The position numbers were made by a program, and so were the translations under genes. Positions 29,614 through 36,139 of a DNA stretch of 37,692 bases are shown piece after piece (within the stretch, counting starts at the first letter, position 1; each line of letters starts with the position of its first letter). This stretch comes from Candidatus Shapirobacteria bacterium CG2_30_35_20 (lineage in GTDB: Bacteria; Patescibacteriota; Microgenomatia; UBA12405): positions 1 to 37,692 of the forward strand of contig MNZO01000020.1 in assembly GCA_001873665.1 (NCBI GenBank), written 5' to 3'. A model generated the notes under the pieces. That model saw only the letters and a program-made list of their open reading frames with translations, did not search any database and was not told the origin of the DNA.

Positions 29614-30858
29614 ATGCCTCATTCCCAAACCATCTCCTGTCTTGATATCGGGACAACAAAAATAACCACCATTGTCGCCAATCTGGTTGATGCCAAATCA
29701 ACTCCCAACATTATTGGAGTTTCCTCAACTACGGCCAAAGGATTCAAAAAAGGACAAATAATAAATCTTGAACAAGCCTCTCAAACCATCACTGAGTCAA
29801 TCGAATCTGCCGAAAGAATGGCTAACTTAGAAATTAATCAAGTTTTTGTCTCCCTGACTGCCCCTCATTTCGAATCGATCAATTCTCATGGCGTCGCCGC
29901 TATCAGTAATCCCAATGGAGAAATTACTCAAGATGATATTTTTCGTGCCATCGAAGCCGCCAAAGCTATTACTCTTCCACCCAACAAAGAAATAATTCAC
30001 AGTATCCCCCGTATTTTCACCGTCGACGGTCAAGATGGTGTGGTTGATCCCATCGGTATGAACGGAATTAGGCTAGAAGTTGATTCTCATTTAATTTTAG
30101 CTTCTACCCCCGCCATAAAAAATTTAACCAAATGCCTCAAAGATATCAATATTAAAATAATTTCTCTAGCCTATTCCGGTCTCACCGCCGGCCTTGCCTG
30201 TCTCTCTGAAACAGAAAATGAGCTTGGTGTGGCTCTGGTTGATATTGGCGGATATAACACCAGCGTTACCATTTTTATCGATAATTCACCAGACTGTTCT
30301 TTTTGTCTCCCTGTTGGTGCCAACAATATTACCGCCGACCTAGCTATCGGTTTACGTCTCCCACTCATCGATGCCGAAAAAATTAAAATCAGATTAGCCC
30401 AATTAGCCGACAAAAAAGGATTTAATGATGAAATTGATCTTTCCAATATCGGTATTACTACCGACAACAACAAGCTTTCAATCTCCTCAACCGTTAATGG
30501 TATTATCAAACCCAGAATTGAAGAAATTATTCATCTTGTTTGGCAAGAAATATGTAATCGTGGTTTTCAAAACCTAATTCCTGCCGGAATCGTTCTGACC
30601 GGTGGTGGCGCTGAAACTATTGAACTAAAAAAAATAGCCCAAAAAATTATTCCTTTACCTCTCAGAATTGGTGAACCCCTCAAATTAAATGGCTTGGTTG
30701 ATGACATTGCTTCTCCAGCCTATAGTAGTACCATCGGCTCGATTCTGTTTTTTCAAAACTCCAAACAAATTCCCCATACCTCAAATAAAAAAATAAATAT
30801 CCCTTTCAAACAAATTTTTCAAAAAATTAAAAATTTTTTAGCACCATTATTACCCTAA
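29614..30858 (+). CDS. ftsA: Cell division protein FtsA
   Basis: Actin-fold motifs LDIGTTKI, VDIGGYNT and VLTGGGAE. It sits immediately upstream of ftsZ. Confidence 0.9.
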   Translation: MPHSQTISCLDIGTTKITTIVANLVDAKSTPNIIGVSSTTAKGFKKGQIINLEQASQTITESIESAERMANLEINQVFVSLTAPHFESINSHGVAAISNPNGEITQDDIFRAIEAAKAITLPPNKEIIHSIPRIFTVDGQDGVVDPIGMNGIRLEVDSHLILASTPAIKNLTKCLKDINIKIISLAYSGLTAGLACLSETENELGVALVDIGGYNTSVTIFIDNSPDCSFCLPVGANNITADLAIGLRLPLIDAEKIKIRLAQLADKKGFNDEIDLSNIGITTDNNKLSISSTVNGIIKPRIEEIIHLVWQEICNRGFQNLIPAGIVLTGGGAETIELKKIAQKIIPLPLRIGEPLKLNGLVDDIASPAYSSTIGSILFFQNSKQIPHTSNKKINIPFKQIFQKIKNFLAPLLP

Positions 30859-30870
30859 ATGCCAAAAAAC

Positions 30871-30975
30871 AAATCTACAATTTCCAAACAAGTTCCAAAT
30901 CTACAAGTTCCAATTGGGATTTGTAATTTGTTTATTGTGATTTGTTTGGAAATTGTTTTTTGTAATTTGGAAATT
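30871..30975. repeat. Imperfect ~100-nt palindrome built from family A-like units (ftsA-ftsZ spacer)
   Basis: Left arm acaatttccaaaca (30877-30890) is the exact reverse complement of tgtttggaaattgt (30943-30956). The flanking units ccaaatctacaa / ttgtaatttgg extend the pairing imperfectly. Confidence 0.7.
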
Positions 30976-30987
30976 ATTTTATAAAAA

Positions 30988-32082
30988 ATGGGATTAATAA
31001 AAACTCTTACCGGTCAATTCGCAAAGATCAAAGTTGTTGGTGTTGGAGGTGGTGGTAATAATGCCATCAATTCAATGATCAACGAAGACAACATCAAGGG
31101 TGTCGAGTTTGTCGCAGTTAATACCGATTCACAGGCGTTACTAAACTCTCTCGCCGATATTAAAATTCAAATTGGAGAAAAATTAACCAAAGGACTCGGG
31201 GCTGGCGGTGAACCACAAGTCGGACAACAAGCAGCCGAAGAATCACGAGAACGCATCAAAGAAGCTCTCACCGATACTGATATGCTTTTTATTACTGGTG
31301 GTATGGGTGGAGGAACATGTACTGGCGCTGCCCCAATTATTGGCGAAATTGCCAAAAAAGAATTAGGTATTTTAACTATTGCCGTTGTTACCAAGCCATT
31401 CTTATTTGAAGGTTCAAGGCGTATGAGTCGGGCCGAAGATGGCCTATCCCATCTTCGCCAATATGTTGATACTCTAATTGTCATTCCCAATCAAAAAGTC
31501 ATGGAAGTGGTCAACAACCAAGCCACGCTATTAGAAGCCTTTAAAATTGCCGATAATGTATTAACTAAAGGCACCAAAGCCATCGCCGATTTAATTACCA
31601 CCACCGGTTTAATAAATCTAGATTTTGCCGATATTAAATCGGTTATGGGCAATGCTGGTTCCGCCCTCATGGGTGTGGGTGAAGCTGAAGGTGAAGGACG
31701 TGCCCAAAAAGCCGTCGAATTGGCTATCGATTCTCCCTTAGTTGAGGCAAATATTGACGGTGCCCGAGGTGTGTTAATCAATATTAATGGTGGTCCTGAT
31801 ATTACCATGGCCGAAATCGAGCAAGCTGCCAAAACTATTACCGACCATGTTGCCCCCGATGCCAATATCATTTTTGGCGCTTCAATCGATTCAGAACTAT
31901 CCGGAAAAATAAAAGTTACCGTTATCGCTACTGGTTTTGATAATTCAAAAATTCATTATGCCAAACCCACCCAAGAACCACTACTATCAGGTGAATATAA
32001 AAATATTTTAGATAATCAAATTATTCCCGAAGGTCTGGACATCGAAACCGATTTCGACATCCCCGCCTTCCTTCGCAAATAG
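30988..32082 (+). CDS. ftsZ: Cell division GTPase FtsZ
   Basis: GVGGGGNNAIN, the tubulin signature GGMGGGTCTGAAP, and NLDFADIK. Confidence 0.97.
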   Translation: MGLIKTLTGQFAKIKVVGVGGGGNNAINSMINEDNIKGVEFVAVNTDSQALLNSLADIKIQIGEKLTKGLGAGGEPQVGQQAAEESRERIKEALTDTDMLFITGGMGGGTCTGAAPIIGEIAKKELGILTIAVVTKPFLFEGSRRMSRAEDGLSHLRQYVDTLIVIPNQKVMEVVNNQATLLEAFKIADNVLTKGTKAIADLITTTGLINLDFADIKSVMGNAGSALMGVGEAEGEGRAQKAVELAIDSPLVEANIDGARGVLININGGPDITMAEIEQAAKTITDHVAPDANIIFGASIDSELSGKIKVTVIATGFDNSKIHYAKPTQEPLLSGEYKNILDNQIIPEGLDIETDFDIPAFLRK

Positions 32083-32088
32083 TTTAAA

Positions 32089-32173
32089 TACGTCATTACG
32101 AGGAGCAATTACAACGGTGACGTGGTAATCTCGTTGAGATTTTATCAGCCTGACATTTTTCCCGTGATATAAT
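32089..32173 (+). repeat. Family B GC-rich dispersed repeat, copy 1 (core + hairpin + extended -10)
   Basis: tacgtcattacgaggagcaattacaacggtgacgtggtaatctcgttgagattttatcagcc...tgatataat. It is near-identical to copy 2 and inverted relative to copy 3. Confidence 0.85.
32165..32173 (+). promoter_or_regulatory. Extended -10 (TGaTATAAT), 6 nt upstream of the hicB ATG, carried by repeat copy 1
   Basis: tgatataat followed by ctattc then ATG 32180. Confidence 0.5.
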
Positions 32174-32179
32174 CTATTC

Positions 32180-32440
32180 ATGGTAAACCAATCATTTAAA
32201 ATCATTTTAGAGCAAGACGAAGATGGAGTTTTTGTGGCGTCAGTGCCAGCCGTACCCGGTTGTTTTGCTGAAGGTAAAACTTATGAAAAAGTAATGGAAA
32301 ATATCAAGGAAGCGTTAAGTCTGTGTCTTGATGTAGCCAACAAAGATAAAGACTATCACGCCAAAATTGATTGGTCTGATGGAAATAAAAGTAAATTTTT
32401 TGGCATAGTAAATTTAAATATGCCAATGTTAGCTTGCTAA
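32180..32440 (+). CDS. hicB: HicB-family antitoxin (UPF0150-type)
   Basis: FKIILEQDEDGVFVASVPAVPGCFAEGKTYEKVMENIKEAL is typical of the HicB N-domain. It lies directly upstream of hicA. Confidence 0.8.
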   Translation: MVNQSFKIILEQDEDGVFVASVPAVPGCFAEGKTYEKVMENIKEALSLCLDVANKDKDYHAKIDWSDGNKSKFFGIVNLNMPMLAC

Positions 32441-32442
32441 AA

Positions 32443-32673
32443 ATGCCCAGGTTACCAGTAATTAATCACAAAAAGTTAGAAAAGGTATTAAAAAATTTGG
32501 GATTTGAAGAAATAAGGCAAAAAGGTAGTCATGCTTTTTTCAAAAGATTTAGCGATGGCAAAACAACCGTAGTTCCCAAGCATAATGGTGATTTAGGAAA
32601 GGGATTATTGCGAAAAATCTTAAACGAAATTGATTTATCAATAGGGGAGTTAGAAAAAAGATTGAGAAAATAA
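32443..32673 (+). CDS. hicA: HicA-family mRNA interferase toxin
   Basis: KKLEKVLKNLGFEEIRQKGSHAFFKR..GKTTVVPKHNGDLGKGLLRKIL matches the HicA/YcfA pattern. I prefer ATG 32443 over the track's 32434. Confidence 0.9.
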   Translation: MPRLPVINHKKLEKVLKNLGFEEIRQKGSHAFFKRFSDGKTTVVPKHNGDLGKGLLRKILNEIDLSIGELEKRLRK

Positions 32674-32678
32674 AAAGA

Positions 32679-32760
32679 TACGTCATTGCGAGGAGCAAAT
32701 ATATAAATAGCGACGTGGTAATCTCGTTGAGATTTTATCAGCCTCAGTTTTTGGTATAAT
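32679..32760 (+). repeat. Family B repeat, copy 2
   Basis: tacgtcattgcgaggagcaaatatataaatagcgacgtggtaatctcgttgagattttatcagcc...tggtataat. Confidence 0.85.
32752..32760 (+). promoter_or_regulatory. Extended -10 (TGgTATAAT) carried by repeat copy 2
   Basis: tggtataat followed by 7 nt then ATG 32768, which opens a 20-codon ORF. Confidence 0.4.
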
Positions 32761-33049
32761 ACAACACATGGATAAGAGAGAGAGAGAAAAAAAACAATTG
32801 TTTCAAACGAAATTATCCACCCAACAATAACTATTCGCAAAGCTAACCCAAAAGAGGAACAAACCCGAGTTTCACAATCAATAGTAAAACTACCATTTTA
32901 TAAAACACACAATTATAAAATAATTTTACCCTTTATCCTGTCCAGAATTTAGTTGATAAAAATATATTTCAAATGGTTACTTTAGAAAACGCATGGCAAA
33001 AAATACCTGATGTTTTGACAGAATATGTAAAACAATATCCTCGATAGTC

Positions 33050-33108
33050 CTTCTCAATCCCCACGAGATTGCCACGTCGCTGTTGTAATTGCTCCTCGCA
33101 ATGACGTC
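33050..33108 (-). repeat. Family B repeat, copy 3 (inverted)
   Basis: The reverse complement of 33063-33107 is acgtcattgcgaggagcaattacaacagcgacgtggcaatctcgt. This matches 41 of 45 positions of copy 1 (32090-32134). Confidence 0.85.
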
Positions 33109-33119
33109 CTAGCGTGTTG

Positions 33120-33125
33120 TATAAT
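33120..33125 (+). promoter_or_regulatory. -10 box TATAAT, 6 nt upstream of ATG 33132
   Basis: Consensus hexamer. It has the same -10-to-ATG spacing as glyQS and hicB. Confidence 0.4.
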
Positions 33126-33131
33126 ACCCCA

Positions 33132-33164
33132 ATGTCACAGACCACAAAAATAATCATTACCTAG
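33132..33164 (+). promoter_or_regulatory. Candidate leaderless leader ORF MSQTTKIIIT upstream of ileS
   Basis: atg tca cag acc aca aaa ata atc att acc tag. It has three consecutive Ile codons and is followed by a hairpin and a terminator. Confidence 0.35.
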
Positions 33165-33188
33165 CCCGAGGGTTTTCCTCGGCTTTAT

Positions 33189-33213
33189 AAATCCGCCTAG
33201 GCGGATTTTTTTT
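33189..33213 (+). terminator. Rho-independent terminator-like hairpin + T8
   Basis: aaatccgc-ctag-gcggattt forms an 8-bp stem, followed by a run of T to 33213. Confidence 0.55.
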
Positions 33214-33266
33214 GCTGTTTTATAGCAAAATTTGGAGCAAAGCGACATAATTTTGTTTTAAAACGC

Positions 33267-33290
33267 AATCCGCCTTTGGCGGAGTTTTAT
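33267..33290 (+). terminator. Second copy of the same hairpin (weaker terminator-like element)
   Basis: aatccgcc-ttt-ggcgga followed by gttttat. Confidence 0.3.
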
Positions 33291-33292
33291 TA

Positions 33293-33298
33293 TATAAT
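33293..33298 (+). promoter_or_regulatory. -10 box TATAAT, 66 nt upstream of the ileS ATG
   Basis: Consensus hexamer within tatataat. The downstream leader is the AT-rich family A repeat. Confidence 0.3.
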
Positions 33299-33306
33299 CA
33301 AATATA

Positions 33307-33364
33307 AATTAAAAATTTAAAAATTGTAAATTTAAAATTGATTAAAAATTTTAAATTAAAAATT
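33307..33364 (+). repeat. Family A repeat, upstream of ileS
   Basis: aaattgtaaatttaaaatt is one mismatch from the 19-mer. It is followed by aaaattgattaaaaattttaaattaaaaatt. Confidence 0.75.
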
Positions 33365-36139
33365 ATGTCTTTCTTTACTGAACTTCCTCAAAACCCCAAC
33401 TTTCCACAATTAGAAAAAGAAATCATGGACTGGTGGACACAAAACGATATTTTAAATAAATATTTACACCGTAACGATAAATCAGAAAAAACCTTTTCTT
33501 TTATCGACGGCCCCATCACCGCCAACAACCCCATGGGTGTTCACCATGCCCTCGGTCGCACCCTCAAAGATGTTTTTCAACGTTTTAAAAATTTGCAAGG
33601 TTACGCCCAAAGATTTCAAAATGGTTTTGACTGTCAAGGCCTATGGGTCGAAGTTGAAGTTGAAAAAGACGCTGGTTTTAATTCCAAAAAAGATATTTTA
33701 GATTTTGGCCTTGATAAATTTACTACCGCTTGCATTGACCGAGTCAACAAATTTAGTTTAATTCAAACCGAACAATCAAAAAGATTAGGAATGTTTATGG
33801 ATTGGGAAAATTCATATTACACCAATTCCCAAAACAACAATCTCTATATTTGGCATTTTTTAAAAATTGTTCATCAAAAAGGTTGGCTCGAGCTTCGTAA
33901 AAGCGCTACCACTTGGTGTCCACGTTGTGAAACAGGGTTATCCCAACACGAACAAGCTGATGGATACAAAGACATTACTGACACCTCAGTTTATGTTTAT
34001 TTTAAATTAAAAGATAAAACCAATGAGTACGTTTTAGCCTGGACTACCACCCCATGGACTCTCACCGCCAATGTACTTCTGGCTATAAACACTGATTATC
34101 CCTATGTTAAGACAAAAATAGACGATAAAATCGTTTACCTTGCCAAAGAAGCGGCCACTAGACTAGGCCTGACTGATTATCAAACAATTGATGTCACCAC
34201 ATTATTAAATTTAAAATACGAATCATTATTTGATTTACCAAATCAAAAAAACATAAAACATTTTATTACCGATTGGAAAGAAGTAACACCACAGGAGGGG
34301 ACTGGTGTCGTTCACATCGCCCCTGGTTGTGGCCAAGAAGATTACGAACTTGGCAAAAAATTAGGTGTTCCCATGCCCTCTCCATTAAACGAGCAAGGTC
34401 ATTTTATAGATAATTACGGGGAATTTACTGGTAAATATGCTCATGGAGTCAAAGAATTGGTTTTTGAAAAACTAAAACAAGCCGGTGCTTTTTTTAAAAC
34501 TGAAGATATTATTCATCGCTATCCCCATTGTTGGCGTTGTAAAACCAAATGTTTATTTCGACTCGAAAATAGTTGGTATATAAAAACTGATGAAATCAGA
34601 CCTCTAATGAAAGCTGCGACTGCCAAAATCGAATGGCATCCCAAGTTCGTCAGTTCCCGAATGCAAAATTGGCTCGATTCTATGGACGACTGGATGATAA
34701 GTCGCTCCCGCTATTATGGTCTAGCCCTCCCTTTTTATAAATGTGAATGCGGTGAATTAACCGTTATCGGTTCTCTTGAGGAATTAAAAGAAAAATCTAT
34801 CAATCCTAAGCAAGTCGAAAGATTAACTTCTCTTCATCGCCCATGGATAGACACCATCAAAATAAAATGCCCTAAATGTGGCCAAATTATCTCTCGTATC
34901 CCAGAAGTCGGGGATTGTTGGCTCGATGCCGGAGTAGTTCCCTTTTCCACCTTAAAATATTTAACTGACAAAAGCTATTGGAAAAAATGGTTCCCCGCTG
35001 ATTTAGTTTTGGAAAATACTGAACAAGTTCGACTTTGGTTTTACTCAATGTTATTTTTTGGAGTTACTCTCAAAAACACCATTCCTTACAAAGCAGTTGT
35101 TACTCATGGTGAAGTTCGCGATCAAAAAGGAGAACGTATCTCAAAAACCAAAAAGAATGGCATACCCTACAACGAAGCCGTAGAAACAATGTCCGCTGAT
35201 GCCATGCGCTGGCTATATTGTTTACAAAAACCATCATCTAATGTCGATTTTGGATACGAAATCACAAACGGAGTTAATCGCGAATATATTTTATTATTAT
35301 GGAACACCTACCGCTTCTTCACCCAGCACGCAAACTTAGAGAATTGGAATGGTCCTGAAAACACGTCATTGCCAGGAGGCTCTGCGACGAAGCAATCTCG
35401 TTCGGGATCGATTATGGACTCATGGATTCTGTCTCGTCTTAATTCTACTATTGAAATAGTCACCAAAGACCTAAATCATTTTGGCACCTCAAATGCCACA
35501 AAAGCCATCCAAAATTTTGTGACTGATTTATCCACCTGGTACATCCGCCGCAATCGAGATCGAACTGATAATTTTGAATTACTTTACAAAATATTTACTA
35601 AACTATCAGTTATAATTTCACCATTTACCCCATTTTTAGGTGAAATTTTACACAAAAATTTGACCACCAATACAGAAACTGTCAATCTTGAAAATTGGCC
35701 CAAAGTCAATAAATCCCAAATAGACAAAGGATTAGAATCTCAAATGATTAACGTTCGAAAAATTTGTCAAGATATTCATGCTGCTCGTCAATTGGCCAAT
35801 TTAAAAATCCGCCAACCCTTATCATCAGCTACTATTACCCAAAAACTCAACCATGAATTACTCGAGGTTATAAAAGATGAAACAAATATCAAAAATATTT
35901 CTATCGGTAACAATTTCTCTCTGGAAACCAAACTCAATCCAGAATTAATTGCCGAGGGTGAATATCGTGATTTTATTCGTAGTATTCAAGTTTTACGCAA
36001 AAATCAAGGATTCCAAATCAAAGATAAAATCAACATCGTCGCCCCCAACTGGCCCGTCACTTTTAAATCAGAAATATTATCAAGAACCTTAGCTATTTCA
36101 ATTAAAAAAGGCGATATTCTTACTATTACCAAAGCTTAA
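33365..36139 (+). CDS. ileS: Isoleucine--tRNA ligase
   Basis: The N-terminus PNFPQLEKEIMDWW resembles Thermus-type IleRS. HIGH-like NPMGVHHALGR, NGFDCQGLWVEVEVEK, KMSKS-like RISKTKKNG, and several Cys-pair zinc knuckles are present. ATG 33365; the track's TTG 33338 lies inside a repeat. Confidence 0.85.
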   Translation: MSFFTELPQNPNFPQLEKEIMDWWTQNDILNKYLHRNDKSEKTFSFIDGPITANNPMGVHHALGRTLKDVFQRFKNLQGYAQRFQNGFDCQGLWVEVEVEKDAGFNSKKDILDFGLDKFTTACIDRVNKFSLIQTEQSKRLGMFMDWENSYYTNSQNNNLYIWHFLKIVHQKGWLELRKSATTWCPRCETGLSQHEQADGYKDITDTSVYVYFKLKDKTNEYVLAWTTTPWTLTANVLLAINTDYPYVKTKIDDKIVYLAKEAATRLGLTDYQTIDVTTLLNLKYESLFDLPNQKNIKHFITDWKEVTPQEGTGVVHIAPGCGQEDYELGKKLGVPMPSPLNEQGHFIDNYGEFTGKYAHGVKELVFEKLKQAGAFFKTEDIIHRYPHCWRCKTKCLFRLENSWYIKTDEIRPLMKAATAKIEWHPKFVSSRMQNWLDSMDDWMISRSRYYGLALPFYKCECGELTVIGSLEELKEKSINPKQVERLTSLHRPWIDTIKIKCPKCGQIISRIPEVGDCWLDAGVVPFSTLKYLTDKSYWKKWFPADLVLENTEQVRLWFYSMLFFGVTLKNTIPYKAVVTHGEVRDQKGERISKTKKNGIPYNEAVETMSADAMRWLYCLQKPSSNVDFGYEITNGVNREYILLLWNTYRFFTQHANLENWNGPENTSLPGGSATKQSRSGSIMDSWILSRLNSTIEIVTKDLNHFGTSNATKAIQNFVTDLSTWYIRRNRDRTDNFELLYKIFTKLSVIISPFTPFLGEILHKNLTTNTETVNLENWPKVNKSQIDKGLESQMINVRKICQDIHAARQLANLKIRQPLSSATITQKLNHELLEVIKDETNIKNISIGNNFSLETKLNPELIAEGEYRDFIRSIQVLRKNQGFQIKDKINIVAPNWPVTFKSEILSRTLAISIKKGDILTITKA
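35363..35402 (+). repeat. Family B repeat, short copy in frame inside ileS
   Basis: acgtcattgccaggaggctctgcgacgaagcaatctcgtt shares both arms (acgtcattgc.agga / gcgacg..gcaatctcgtt) with copies 1-3. It is translated as TSLPGGSATKQSR. Confidence 0.7.

Follow-up and report, generated by a model that had tools for sequence, protein, structure and literature searches.

The isoleucyl-tRNA synthetase gene (ileS) of Candidatus Shapirobacteria bacterium CG2_30_35_20 is preceded by a conserved module in which a promoter-like -10 box, a short open reading frame (ORF) with a run of Ile codons, a hairpin and an intrinsic terminator follow one another closely. The module lies in a 37,692-nt stretch of DNA (assembly GCA_001873665.1, contig MNZO01000020.1, positions 1-37,692, forward strand), hereafter the window, from a lineage of the Microgenomates within the candidate phyla radiation (CPR; Patescibacteria). 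Comparison of related ileS loci indicates that the module is a real, selected element, and ileS is very probably transcribed independently of it, from a predicted promoter of its own. We tentatively propose, at less than even probability, that the module is a conserved, separately promoted leader unit that senses Ile-tRNA(Ile) via the translating ribosome and is coupled to ileS in a non-classical way. The stronger claim, that it represents a new kind of Ile-tRNA-charging sensor for an aminoacyl-tRNA synthetase (aaRS) gene, in which ribosome position controls ileS output without an antiterminator, we regard as doubtful. An earlier note on this DNA had suggested a ribosome-mediated attenuator at this site, and the coordinates it gave for the promoter, ATG, ORF, hairpins, terminator, second TATAAT and ileS ATG proved correct on re-reading. 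The elements are, in order:

33120..33125, + strand: P1, a putative leaderless-type promoter with the -10 box TATAAT, 6 nt 5' of the ATG at 33132
33132..33164, + strand: the mini-ORF, a leaderless ORF of 10 codons encoding MSQTTKIIIT, from ATG 33132 to the stop codon TAG at 33162-33164
33152..33164, + strand: a single-stranded motif, A-ATY-ATT-NYY-TAG (A ATC ATT ACC TAG in the window), comprising two universal Ile codons and the stop
33163..33184, + strand: hairpin hp1, with a bulged C, whose first base pair is formed by the A of the stop codon UAG
33189..33213, + strand: intrinsic terminator T1, with an 8-bp stem and 4-nt loop (stem 33189-33208) and U8 (T8 to 33213)
33214..33283, + strand: the long-form spacer and hairpin hp2 (from 33267 or 33269 to 33283), the arms of which are the same as those of the earlier hairpin
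33293..33298, + strand: P2, the TATAAT -10 box of the putative promoter belonging to ileS itself
33299..33364, + strand: an AT-only leader between P2 and the ileS ATG, with AAATTTAAAAATT-like repetitive units and no Shine-Dalgarno sequence
33365..36139, + strand: ileS, isoleucyl-tRNA synthetase, 924 aa (Pfam tRNA-synt_1 and Anticodon_1)

The ileS loci came from one genome scan, from one pattern scan of metagenomes and from contigs on which IleS homologues are encoded; the closest IleS relatives are labeled Candidatus Shapirobacteria, and identical contigs occur in the groundwater datasets JGI 3300014060, JGI 3300005236 and SRR1534387. Sixteen lineages were examined. In 11 of them, which span four deep branches and have IleS proteins 67-100% identical, ileS is immediately preceded by the module, defined as an ORF ending in Ile-Ile-x-UAG with hp1 and T1 behind it. 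Eight of these lineages form a close clade (the window, L001, L003, L026, L027, L029, L031 and L032; IleS 79-100% identical), and all eight possess the -10 box, 6 nt, ATG, an ORF of 10-11 codons, TAG, hp1 and T1. The deeper lineages L038, L040 and L041 keep ATT ATT (ACC or CTT) TAG with hp1 and T1 before ileS, and the ORFs that read into the module there are mutually non-homologous. In L038 (IleS 69%) this ORF is a 102-aa orphan ending in PKIIT, in L040 (IleS 67%) it is a 77-aa orphan ending in RTIIT, and in L041 (IleS 67%) a 60-aa ORF is followed, after a gap of 2 nt, by a 13-codon ORF, MQNNINSQNLIIL; the first ORF of each begins 5-6 nt after a -10 box. Thus in each of four non-homologous ORF architectures, ATY ATT lies in frame as Ile-Ile, with TAG as the stop. 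The long ORFs 5' of the module in L038 and L040 were rejected as conserved genes, being orphans without a Pfam match and unlike each other. The 5' neighbors of the module also differ among lineages (ftsZ, a minus-strand gene and others), and the module stays with ileS.

At fourfold-degenerate sites of ileS, identity of the window to each other lineage is 31-46%, which amounts to saturation. The -10 box, the ATG, the motif and the position of hp1 are kept despite this, and together with the covariation described below this marks the module as a real, selected element. A covariance model trained on the close clade picks up L038 (E ~5e-8) and L040 (E ~8e-4), and it found no further module copies in 314 kb of related loci. 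When metagenome contigs were scanned with a pattern of promoter, ATG, gap and TAGCCC, the same lineages and one strain variant were returned and nothing more; a scan of viral contigs for the module gave no match. Within the collected loci, the 12-mer ATYATTAYYTAG occurs at the module position only, save for one chance match inside the ileS gene of L028. The source labels of some loci are unexpected: L004 (CAZJUH010000003) is labeled 'uncultured Gammaproteobacteria', yet its IleS is 64% identical and ftsZ lies directly 5' of ileS as in Shapirobacteria, and L006, L007 and L010, with IleS 46-48% identical, are labeled 'Woesearchaeota'. These labels may be binning or taxonomy errors.

The mini-ORF of the window reads atg tca cag acc aca aaa ata atc att acc tag. 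Its homologues in the close clade encode MLHNVKIIIT, MLHSVKIIII, MLLSVNIIIT, MSKSVKIIIT, MQQSLKKIIIT, MQISFTKIIIT and MLQNVKIIII; all are 10 or 11 codons long, the ATG and the last codons are kept, codons 2-5 are hypervariable, and the sole indel is one of 3 nt. The ORF reading into the module ends in Ile-Ile-x-UAG in all 11 lineages, with a third Ile in the close clade, and the motif A-ATY-ATT-NYY-TAG is present without an indel in every one, including the three in which IleS is 67-69% identical. Variation within the motif is of a synonymous type (ATC/ATT, ACC/ACT and Thr, Ile or Leu at codon -1, the codon before the stop). For comparison, the same codon is used at conserved Ile positions inside IleS in just 38-56% of cases. 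That the ATG, the Ile codons, the stop and the spacing to hp1 are kept while codons 2-5 are free to change, again at saturating divergence, is the pattern of a regulatory leader peptide. A short Ile-rich ORF and a terminator are therefore retained before ileS in relatives, the comparative test that the earlier note had set.

Both RNA helices are supported by covariation. The hp1 helix is paired in 94% of cells and has two pairs with compensatory changes, and T1 has such changes in five of its eight pairs; taken together, double-sided changes occur in 7 of 15 pairs and 93.9% of cells are paired, as compared to 34-61% in controls with slid partners. The observed covariation values were reached by only 0-2 of 500 shuffles. 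The first pair of hp1 sits at the A of TAG without any indel, whereas hairpin loops and linkers vary. T1 begins 4-6 nt 3' of hp1 across lineages and retains its 8-bp stem and a U-tail of U5-U8. It is the only strong intrinsic terminator in the 37.7-kb window, in keeping with the strength previously ascribed to it; terminator-like sequences in the window are as numerous as in shuffles.

The second hairpin is less constant. In the window, T1, the spacer and hp2 (33189-33285) fold as an imperfect palindrome of ~95 nt forming one long rod (z = -5.3 for the minimum free energy, MFE). This long form is found in the window, L027, L038 and L041; L001, L003, L026, L029, L031, L032 and L040 have a short form without hp2, and the short forms look like deletions between two similar hairpins. 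Because a single-nucleotide polymorphism, G33281T, in the strain contigs L023 and L025 breaks one hp2 pair, and because a U-run follows hp2 in the window only, we treated hp2 as a secondary element. A segment of the spacer (33244-33254) is also perfectly complementary over 11 nt to the start-codon region of ileS (33359-33369; GACATAATTTT / AAAATTATGTC). Equivalents elsewhere are AU-rich, 7-8 nt long and confined to L038 and L027, and this complementarity is probably due to chance.

The geometry of P1 is that of this organism's leaderless genes. TATAAT or TACAAT, then exactly 6 nt, then ATG is kept in all eight close lineages, which bears out the suggestion that a leaderless transcript starting at the ATG is plausible. 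Across the whole window, TATAAT-N5-8-ATG occurs seven times on the + strand and not once on the - strand, and consensus promoter-like sequences are as frequent as in shuffles. Four of the seven sites open long ORFs, namely an 88-aa DUF6922 protein, a hexapeptide transferase, a 439-aa class II aaRS and hicB; these correspond to the four genes (88-aa ORF, acetyltransferase gene, glyQS-called gene and hicB) for which a common -10-to-ATG spacing had been claimed. Several genes of the window begin 5-6 nt 3' of TATAAT, the arrangement of leaderless mRNAs, and a Shine-Dalgarno sequence precedes none of its 37 gene starts.

How such a unit would sense isoleucine can be outlined from ribosome geometry. 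The ribosome admits mRNA at an entrance about 11-13 nt 3' of the first base in the P site. With a ribosome awaiting Ile-tRNA at the first universal Ile codon, hp1 would be intact and its foot would lie exactly at that entrance; with the ribosome at the second Ile codon, one to three hp1 pairs would be opened; and at the UAG, the whole 5' arm of hp1 (33163-33171) would be unwound. Since ribosome position would set the extent of hp1 opening, the folding state of hp1 would report the supply of Ile-tRNA. This state might in turn alter the share of P1 transcripts that pass T1, adding to a basal, P2-driven expression of ileS. The coupling would not be by the usual antiterminator because, as described below, that element is absent. 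It could instead be kinetic, with hp1 acting as a pause hairpin that sets the coupling between ribosome and RNA polymerase; ribosomes escaping the UAG could run into T1; or a released leader RNA, produced in an Ile-dependent manner, could act in trans.

A number of observations weigh against an Ile-sensing leader unit, the first being the behavior of the terminator. Folding was assessed by the MFE of the full RNA with ribosome masks and by RNA truncated before the 3' arm of T1. T1 is part of the MFE structure under every ribosome mask (each Ile codon, codon 10 and the stop) in all eight close lineages. The antiterminator of the trp operon is likewise weaker than its terminator, and for this reason the truncated RNA is the kinetically relevant test. 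In truncated RNA of L001, the G-run and loop of hp1 pair with the 5' arm of T1 (-10.9 kcal/mol), and weak capture of this arm also occurs in L003, L031 and L032; no comparable capture was seen in the window, L026, L027, L029, L038, L040 or L041. Over the 11 lineages, alternative pairing is thus strong in one, weak in three and absent in seven, the window among them. A 2:3-type pairing is impossible because the two arms it would need, 3' in hp1 and 5' in T1, are both C-rich, and a terminating ribosome cannot cover T1 because the stop codon lies 24 nt 5' of it. The classical antiterminator was therefore rejected by eye, by masked MFE and by truncated RNA, and none is conserved. The earlier note had found no convincing antiterminator by eye, with which folding agrees; the mutually exclusive structures for which it had suggested a folding test did not emerge in any conserved form, and the terminator is predicted to be constitutive at every ribosome position. 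In silico, this is an outcome that the note had named as refuting its attenuator; another such outcome, a lack of conservation in related genomes, clearly did not occur.

A second set of observations concerns the promoter of ileS and the distribution of the module. P2 is a perfect TATAAT before ileS in all 16 lineages examined. It stands 5-6 nt from the ileS ATG, the leaderless distance, in L002, L039, L038 and L041. The distance is 10 nt in L004, L005 and L019 and ranges over 23-73 nt in L040 and the close clade. L038 and L041 carry the module and nonetheless have P2 at the leaderless distance; given this and the perfect P2 throughout, ileS would not need read-through from P1, as was anticipated when the second -10 box was noted as a possible independent driver of ileS. 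In the window, the leader that follows P2 is almost purely A/T, with nested inverted repeats in addition to its repetitive units, and the 23-73 nt range among close relatives reflects the varying length of this leader. The module is absent in 5 of 16 lineages (L002, IleS 83%; L039, 69%; L004; L005; and L019) and is therefore dispensable; in these lineages, TATAAT and the ileS ATG lie within about 30 nt of the end of ftsZ. Furthermore, the other aaRS gene of the window, encoding the 439-aa class II enzyme, is leaderless and has no leader unit.

The motif itself provides the third set. The third base of codon -4 is A in every lineage (ATA, AAA, ACA, TTA) and its first two bases vary; codon -1 is always N-Y-Y, and ATA and the last ATT are fixed. 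A pure codon model does not predict this nucleotide-level conservation, and an RNA-level role, such as a seed or protein site, fits it at least as well. Two Ile codons would make a weak sensor given a proteome with 11% Ile. Three of 147 short ATG ORFs in the window (2%) contain III, and chance could account for the mini-ORF pattern if the window is taken by itself; what lifts the pattern above chance is its conservation, with covarying hairpins, 5' of ileS in 10 further lineages.

Taken as a whole, the Ile codons beside ileS, the conserved start and the invariant spacing to hp1 favor an Ile-sensing leader unit, and the missing antiterminator, the conserved P2 and the patchy distribution favor an autonomous small RNA or a constitutive terminator or insulator. 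Among the features of a classical attenuator, the short predicted ORF, the cognate Ile codons and the Rho-independent terminator are present; a ribosome-dependent antiterminator is not, and a predicted promoter does lie between terminator and gene. The attenuator of the earlier note thus stands as to its conserved ORF, Ile codons and terminator and falls as to a conserved antiterminator, with ileS having its own -10 box. Likewise, its comparison to pheM-pheST and the ilv, thr and leu attenuators holds for the list of parts and does not extend to an antiterminator or to transcription from a single promoter.

The module could alternatively be a self-contained small RNA gene, possibly of dual function, whose P1-T1 RNA of ~80 nt acts in trans and which sits beside ileS merely by descent. 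Here the 13-nt single strand would be a seed or protein-binding site, hp1 and T1 a scaffold, and the deeper lineages would derive the RNA from the 3' end of an upstream mRNA. The architecture suits a trans-acting small RNA, with its own predicted promoter, a conserved, G-poor single-stranded stretch, two covarying hairpins and a U-tail on the terminator hairpin. The single-stranded motif is conserved at the nucleotide level and more strongly than the hairpin sequences, T1 looks constitutive, ileS has its own predicted promoter, and terminated leader RNAs acting in trans have precedent in rnTrpL (PMC6614838). A small RNA would leave unexplained the ATG 6 nt after the -10 box, the 3-nt indel and the hypervariable codons 2-5, as well as the occurrence of Ile-Ile-x-stop in the frame of four unrelated ORFs beside ileS. 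Complementarity of the motif to the leader and start region of ileS is no better than in shuffles (z -0.3 to +1.5), and pairing with either was rejected on this basis; elsewhere in the window, the complement of the motif finds merely low-complexity matches with 2-3 mismatches inside genes. There is also no match to a small RNA family in Rfam. On balance, we consider a small RNA of this kind unlikely.

Of similar standing, and likewise improbable in our estimation, is a constitutive tandem terminator or insulator, in which hp1 and T1 (with hp2 where present) would end a fast-turning-over cassette between ftsZ and ileS and shield P2. The mini-ORF would be the remnant of a larger upstream gene, and the Ile codons incidental to an AU-rich conserved stretch bearing the only stop before the hairpins. 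The region 5' of the module is an insertion hot spot, containing orphan ORFs, CPR repeats and a hicBA pair that has 70-nt repeats on either side and is missing from L035. Lineages that lack the module also lack the upstream ORF, and in them ftsZ abuts P2, which itself is kept in all lineages; formation of T1 is predicted whatever the state. A stop before the hairpins exists in frame 0 only, so that selection to end a gene before the terminator would by itself place every upstream ORF in that frame, and III is found in 2% of random short ORFs. However, an insulator does not explain why the 13 nt of the motif are the best conserved and invariantly spaced to hp1, or why a promoter and start codon are kept for a 10-codon remnant in eight lineages at saturating divergence. 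The module-less lineages, moreover, have no terminator between ftsZ and ileS, and insulation is therefore not generally needed.

Starvation-induced frameshift antitermination, in which peptidyl-tRNA(Lys) at a hungry first Ile codon would slip -1 on the A5 run (A AAA A) so that the ribosome passes the UAG and reads on through hp1 until it stops at the 5' arm of T1 or past it (UAA 33188-33190 in the window), leaving T1 unfolded, is very improbable. The first Ile codon follows AAA in 8 of 11 lineages, with a further A before the AAA in seven, both alternative frames are open to the edge of T1 in all 11, and the -1 frame has its stop 1 nt before the 5' arm of T1 in the window and L038; however, shuffles show that chance alone would leave such frames open (0.47-0.86 per lineage), the A-run is lacking in L026, L040 and L041, -1 slippage is impossible in L031, and hungry-codon shifts are usually inefficient. 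We know of no precedent for a hungry-codon frameshift as a regulatory device.

Comparison with known systems places the proposed Ile-sensing leader unit close to several of them and within none. Like pheM-pheST of E. coli and trpL, ilvL, thrL, leuL and hisL, it has a short ORF rich in cognate codons, a hairpin and a Rho-independent terminator before the cognate gene, and like those leader peptides its conservation is limited to the start, the regulatory codons and the stop. Unlike the E. coli attenuators, the ileS module has no segment that pairs with the 5' arm of T1, and hence no 2:3 antiterminator; its stop codon is 24 nt from the terminator; a conserved predicted promoter intervenes between terminator and gene; and its ORF is leaderless, reaches 77-102 codons in some lineages and matches no Rfam leader family. 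Leader peptides whose remaining attenuator parts are missing have precedent (PMC1262725).

In mycobacteria, leaderless polycysteine sensory small ORFs (the 'ribulon') have been described, with ribosome pausing as the proposed signal (Canestrari et al., bioRxiv 10.1101/834739). The ileS module resembles these in being a leaderless short ORF with a run of codons for one amino acid before genes for that amino acid. In contrast to the mycobacterial case, a strong terminator and a predicted promoter part the small ORF from ileS, and the host uses no Shine-Dalgarno sites. Unmasking of a downstream start site is excluded because that terminator and promoter, T1 and P2, intervene; a freed 3' arm of hp1 would in any case find no downstream partner, the ileS leader being almost without G or C, and the mycobacterial type of start-site unmasking thus fails here.

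T-box riboswitches of ileS are known from Firmicutes, and translational T-boxes from Actinobacteria (PMC1262725). Similar to these, the module is a cis element before ileS that would respond to tRNA(Ile) charging, with an Ile codon (AUC/AUU) exposed 5' of the terminator. Unlike a T-box, it has no Stem I, specifier loop, T-box sequence or UGGN bulge, and its leader is ~80 nt as opposed to >200. Rfam searches of the whole window at the gathering threshold, and of positions 31900-33500 at E<=10, returned no T-box, leader or small RNA family. The best sub-threshold matches, P9 (24.9 bits against a gathering score of 43) and Phe_leader (18.8 against 55), were driven by the terminator hairpin. A T-box (RF00230) was accordingly rejected, with no match even at E<=10 and a leader of only about 80 nt, and since neither a T-box nor another Rfam family was found, no known type of ileS control is present.

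A terminated leader transcript with a mini-ORF could itself be the functional product, as with the attenuator-derived small RNA rnTrpL and leader peptide peTrpL of Sinorhizobium meliloti (PMC6614838, PMC7298713); unlike the ileS module, rnTrpL stems from a classical attenuator with an antiterminator and has mapped targets. In Caulobacter crescentus, a small coding sequence immediately 5' of ileS, CCNA_03934, is translated according to ribosome profiling and figures as a control only in PMC4117421. It comes from an unrelated phylum and is likened to the module by position alone. Several further candidates were dropped by eye, their motifs being absent or not conserved: a minus-strand promoter in the motif, a CodY-like box in the spacer, CsrA GGA sites, integron or dif-like recombination sites, and an anticodon-arm mimic in hp1.

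The window has a GC content of ~34% and is a co-directional array of about 38 genes, with all long ORFs on the + strand. TAG is its rarest stop codon (3 of 37), and no tRNA or transfer-messenger RNA was found in it; a tRNA-Ile gene is likewise absent from all the collected loci. The genes around the module are:

29614-30858, + strand: ftsA
30988-32082, + strand: ftsZ
32180-32673, + strand: hicB and hicA, between ftsZ and ileS
between hicA and ileS: a gene-poor stretch of 690 nt
3' of ileS: a RodA/FtsW-family gene, then rplU

Between ftsA and ftsZ, at 30902-30925, lies an AT-rich hairpin of 10 pairs followed by a T-rich stretch. This hairpin, within the division cluster, may be a site of processing or of weak termination. 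A minus-strand ORF of 62 aa at 32969-33157 has no Pfam match, overlaps a repeat and has its ATG only in ATC-containing variants; it was dropped as a gene on these grounds.

The repeat in question, of ~50-70 nt (ACGTCATTGCGAGGAGCAA...GACGTGGTAATCTCGTTGAGATT), is present in three copies that are 86-95% alike, at 32088-32159 and 32678-32752 (+) and, inverted, at 33056-33107. We take it to be of the palindromic intergenic type common in CPR genomes. A TGnTATAAT promoter-like sequence and a leaderless ORF come after each + copy, and the hicB-hicA pair (32160-32677) lies between two direct 70-nt copies. In the strain contig L035 (reverse strand, 11100-10990), hicB-hicA is absent and a single repeat copy remains, the sequence being otherwise identical over the ~270 nt of leader region compared; this indicates that hicB-hicA is a strain-level cassette, inserted or deleted by recombination between repeats. 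A leaderless small ORF after TGGTATAAT (32768-32830 in the window; 2999-3187 in L024) begins with a (GA)n A(n) tract whose length varies among strain contigs. It is intact at 62 aa in L024 and cut to 20-25 codons in the window, L023 and L035, and the differences in tract length reflect either phase variation or assembly error.

CPR bacteria have tiny genomes, are unable to make most amino acids and have scarcely any described gene regulation. If the module is indeed an Ile-sensing leader unit, the conserved tie of Ile codons to ileS would show how these bacteria sense amino-acid supply, and it would be the first cis-regulatory RNA device described in them. It would also offer a case in which to test how, without an antiterminator, a ribosome passes its signal to transcription or a small RNA. 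Even if the link to Ile is incidental, the comparison defines a covarying, lineage-restricted RNA module and documents leaderless, Shine-Dalgarno-free starts in these organisms.

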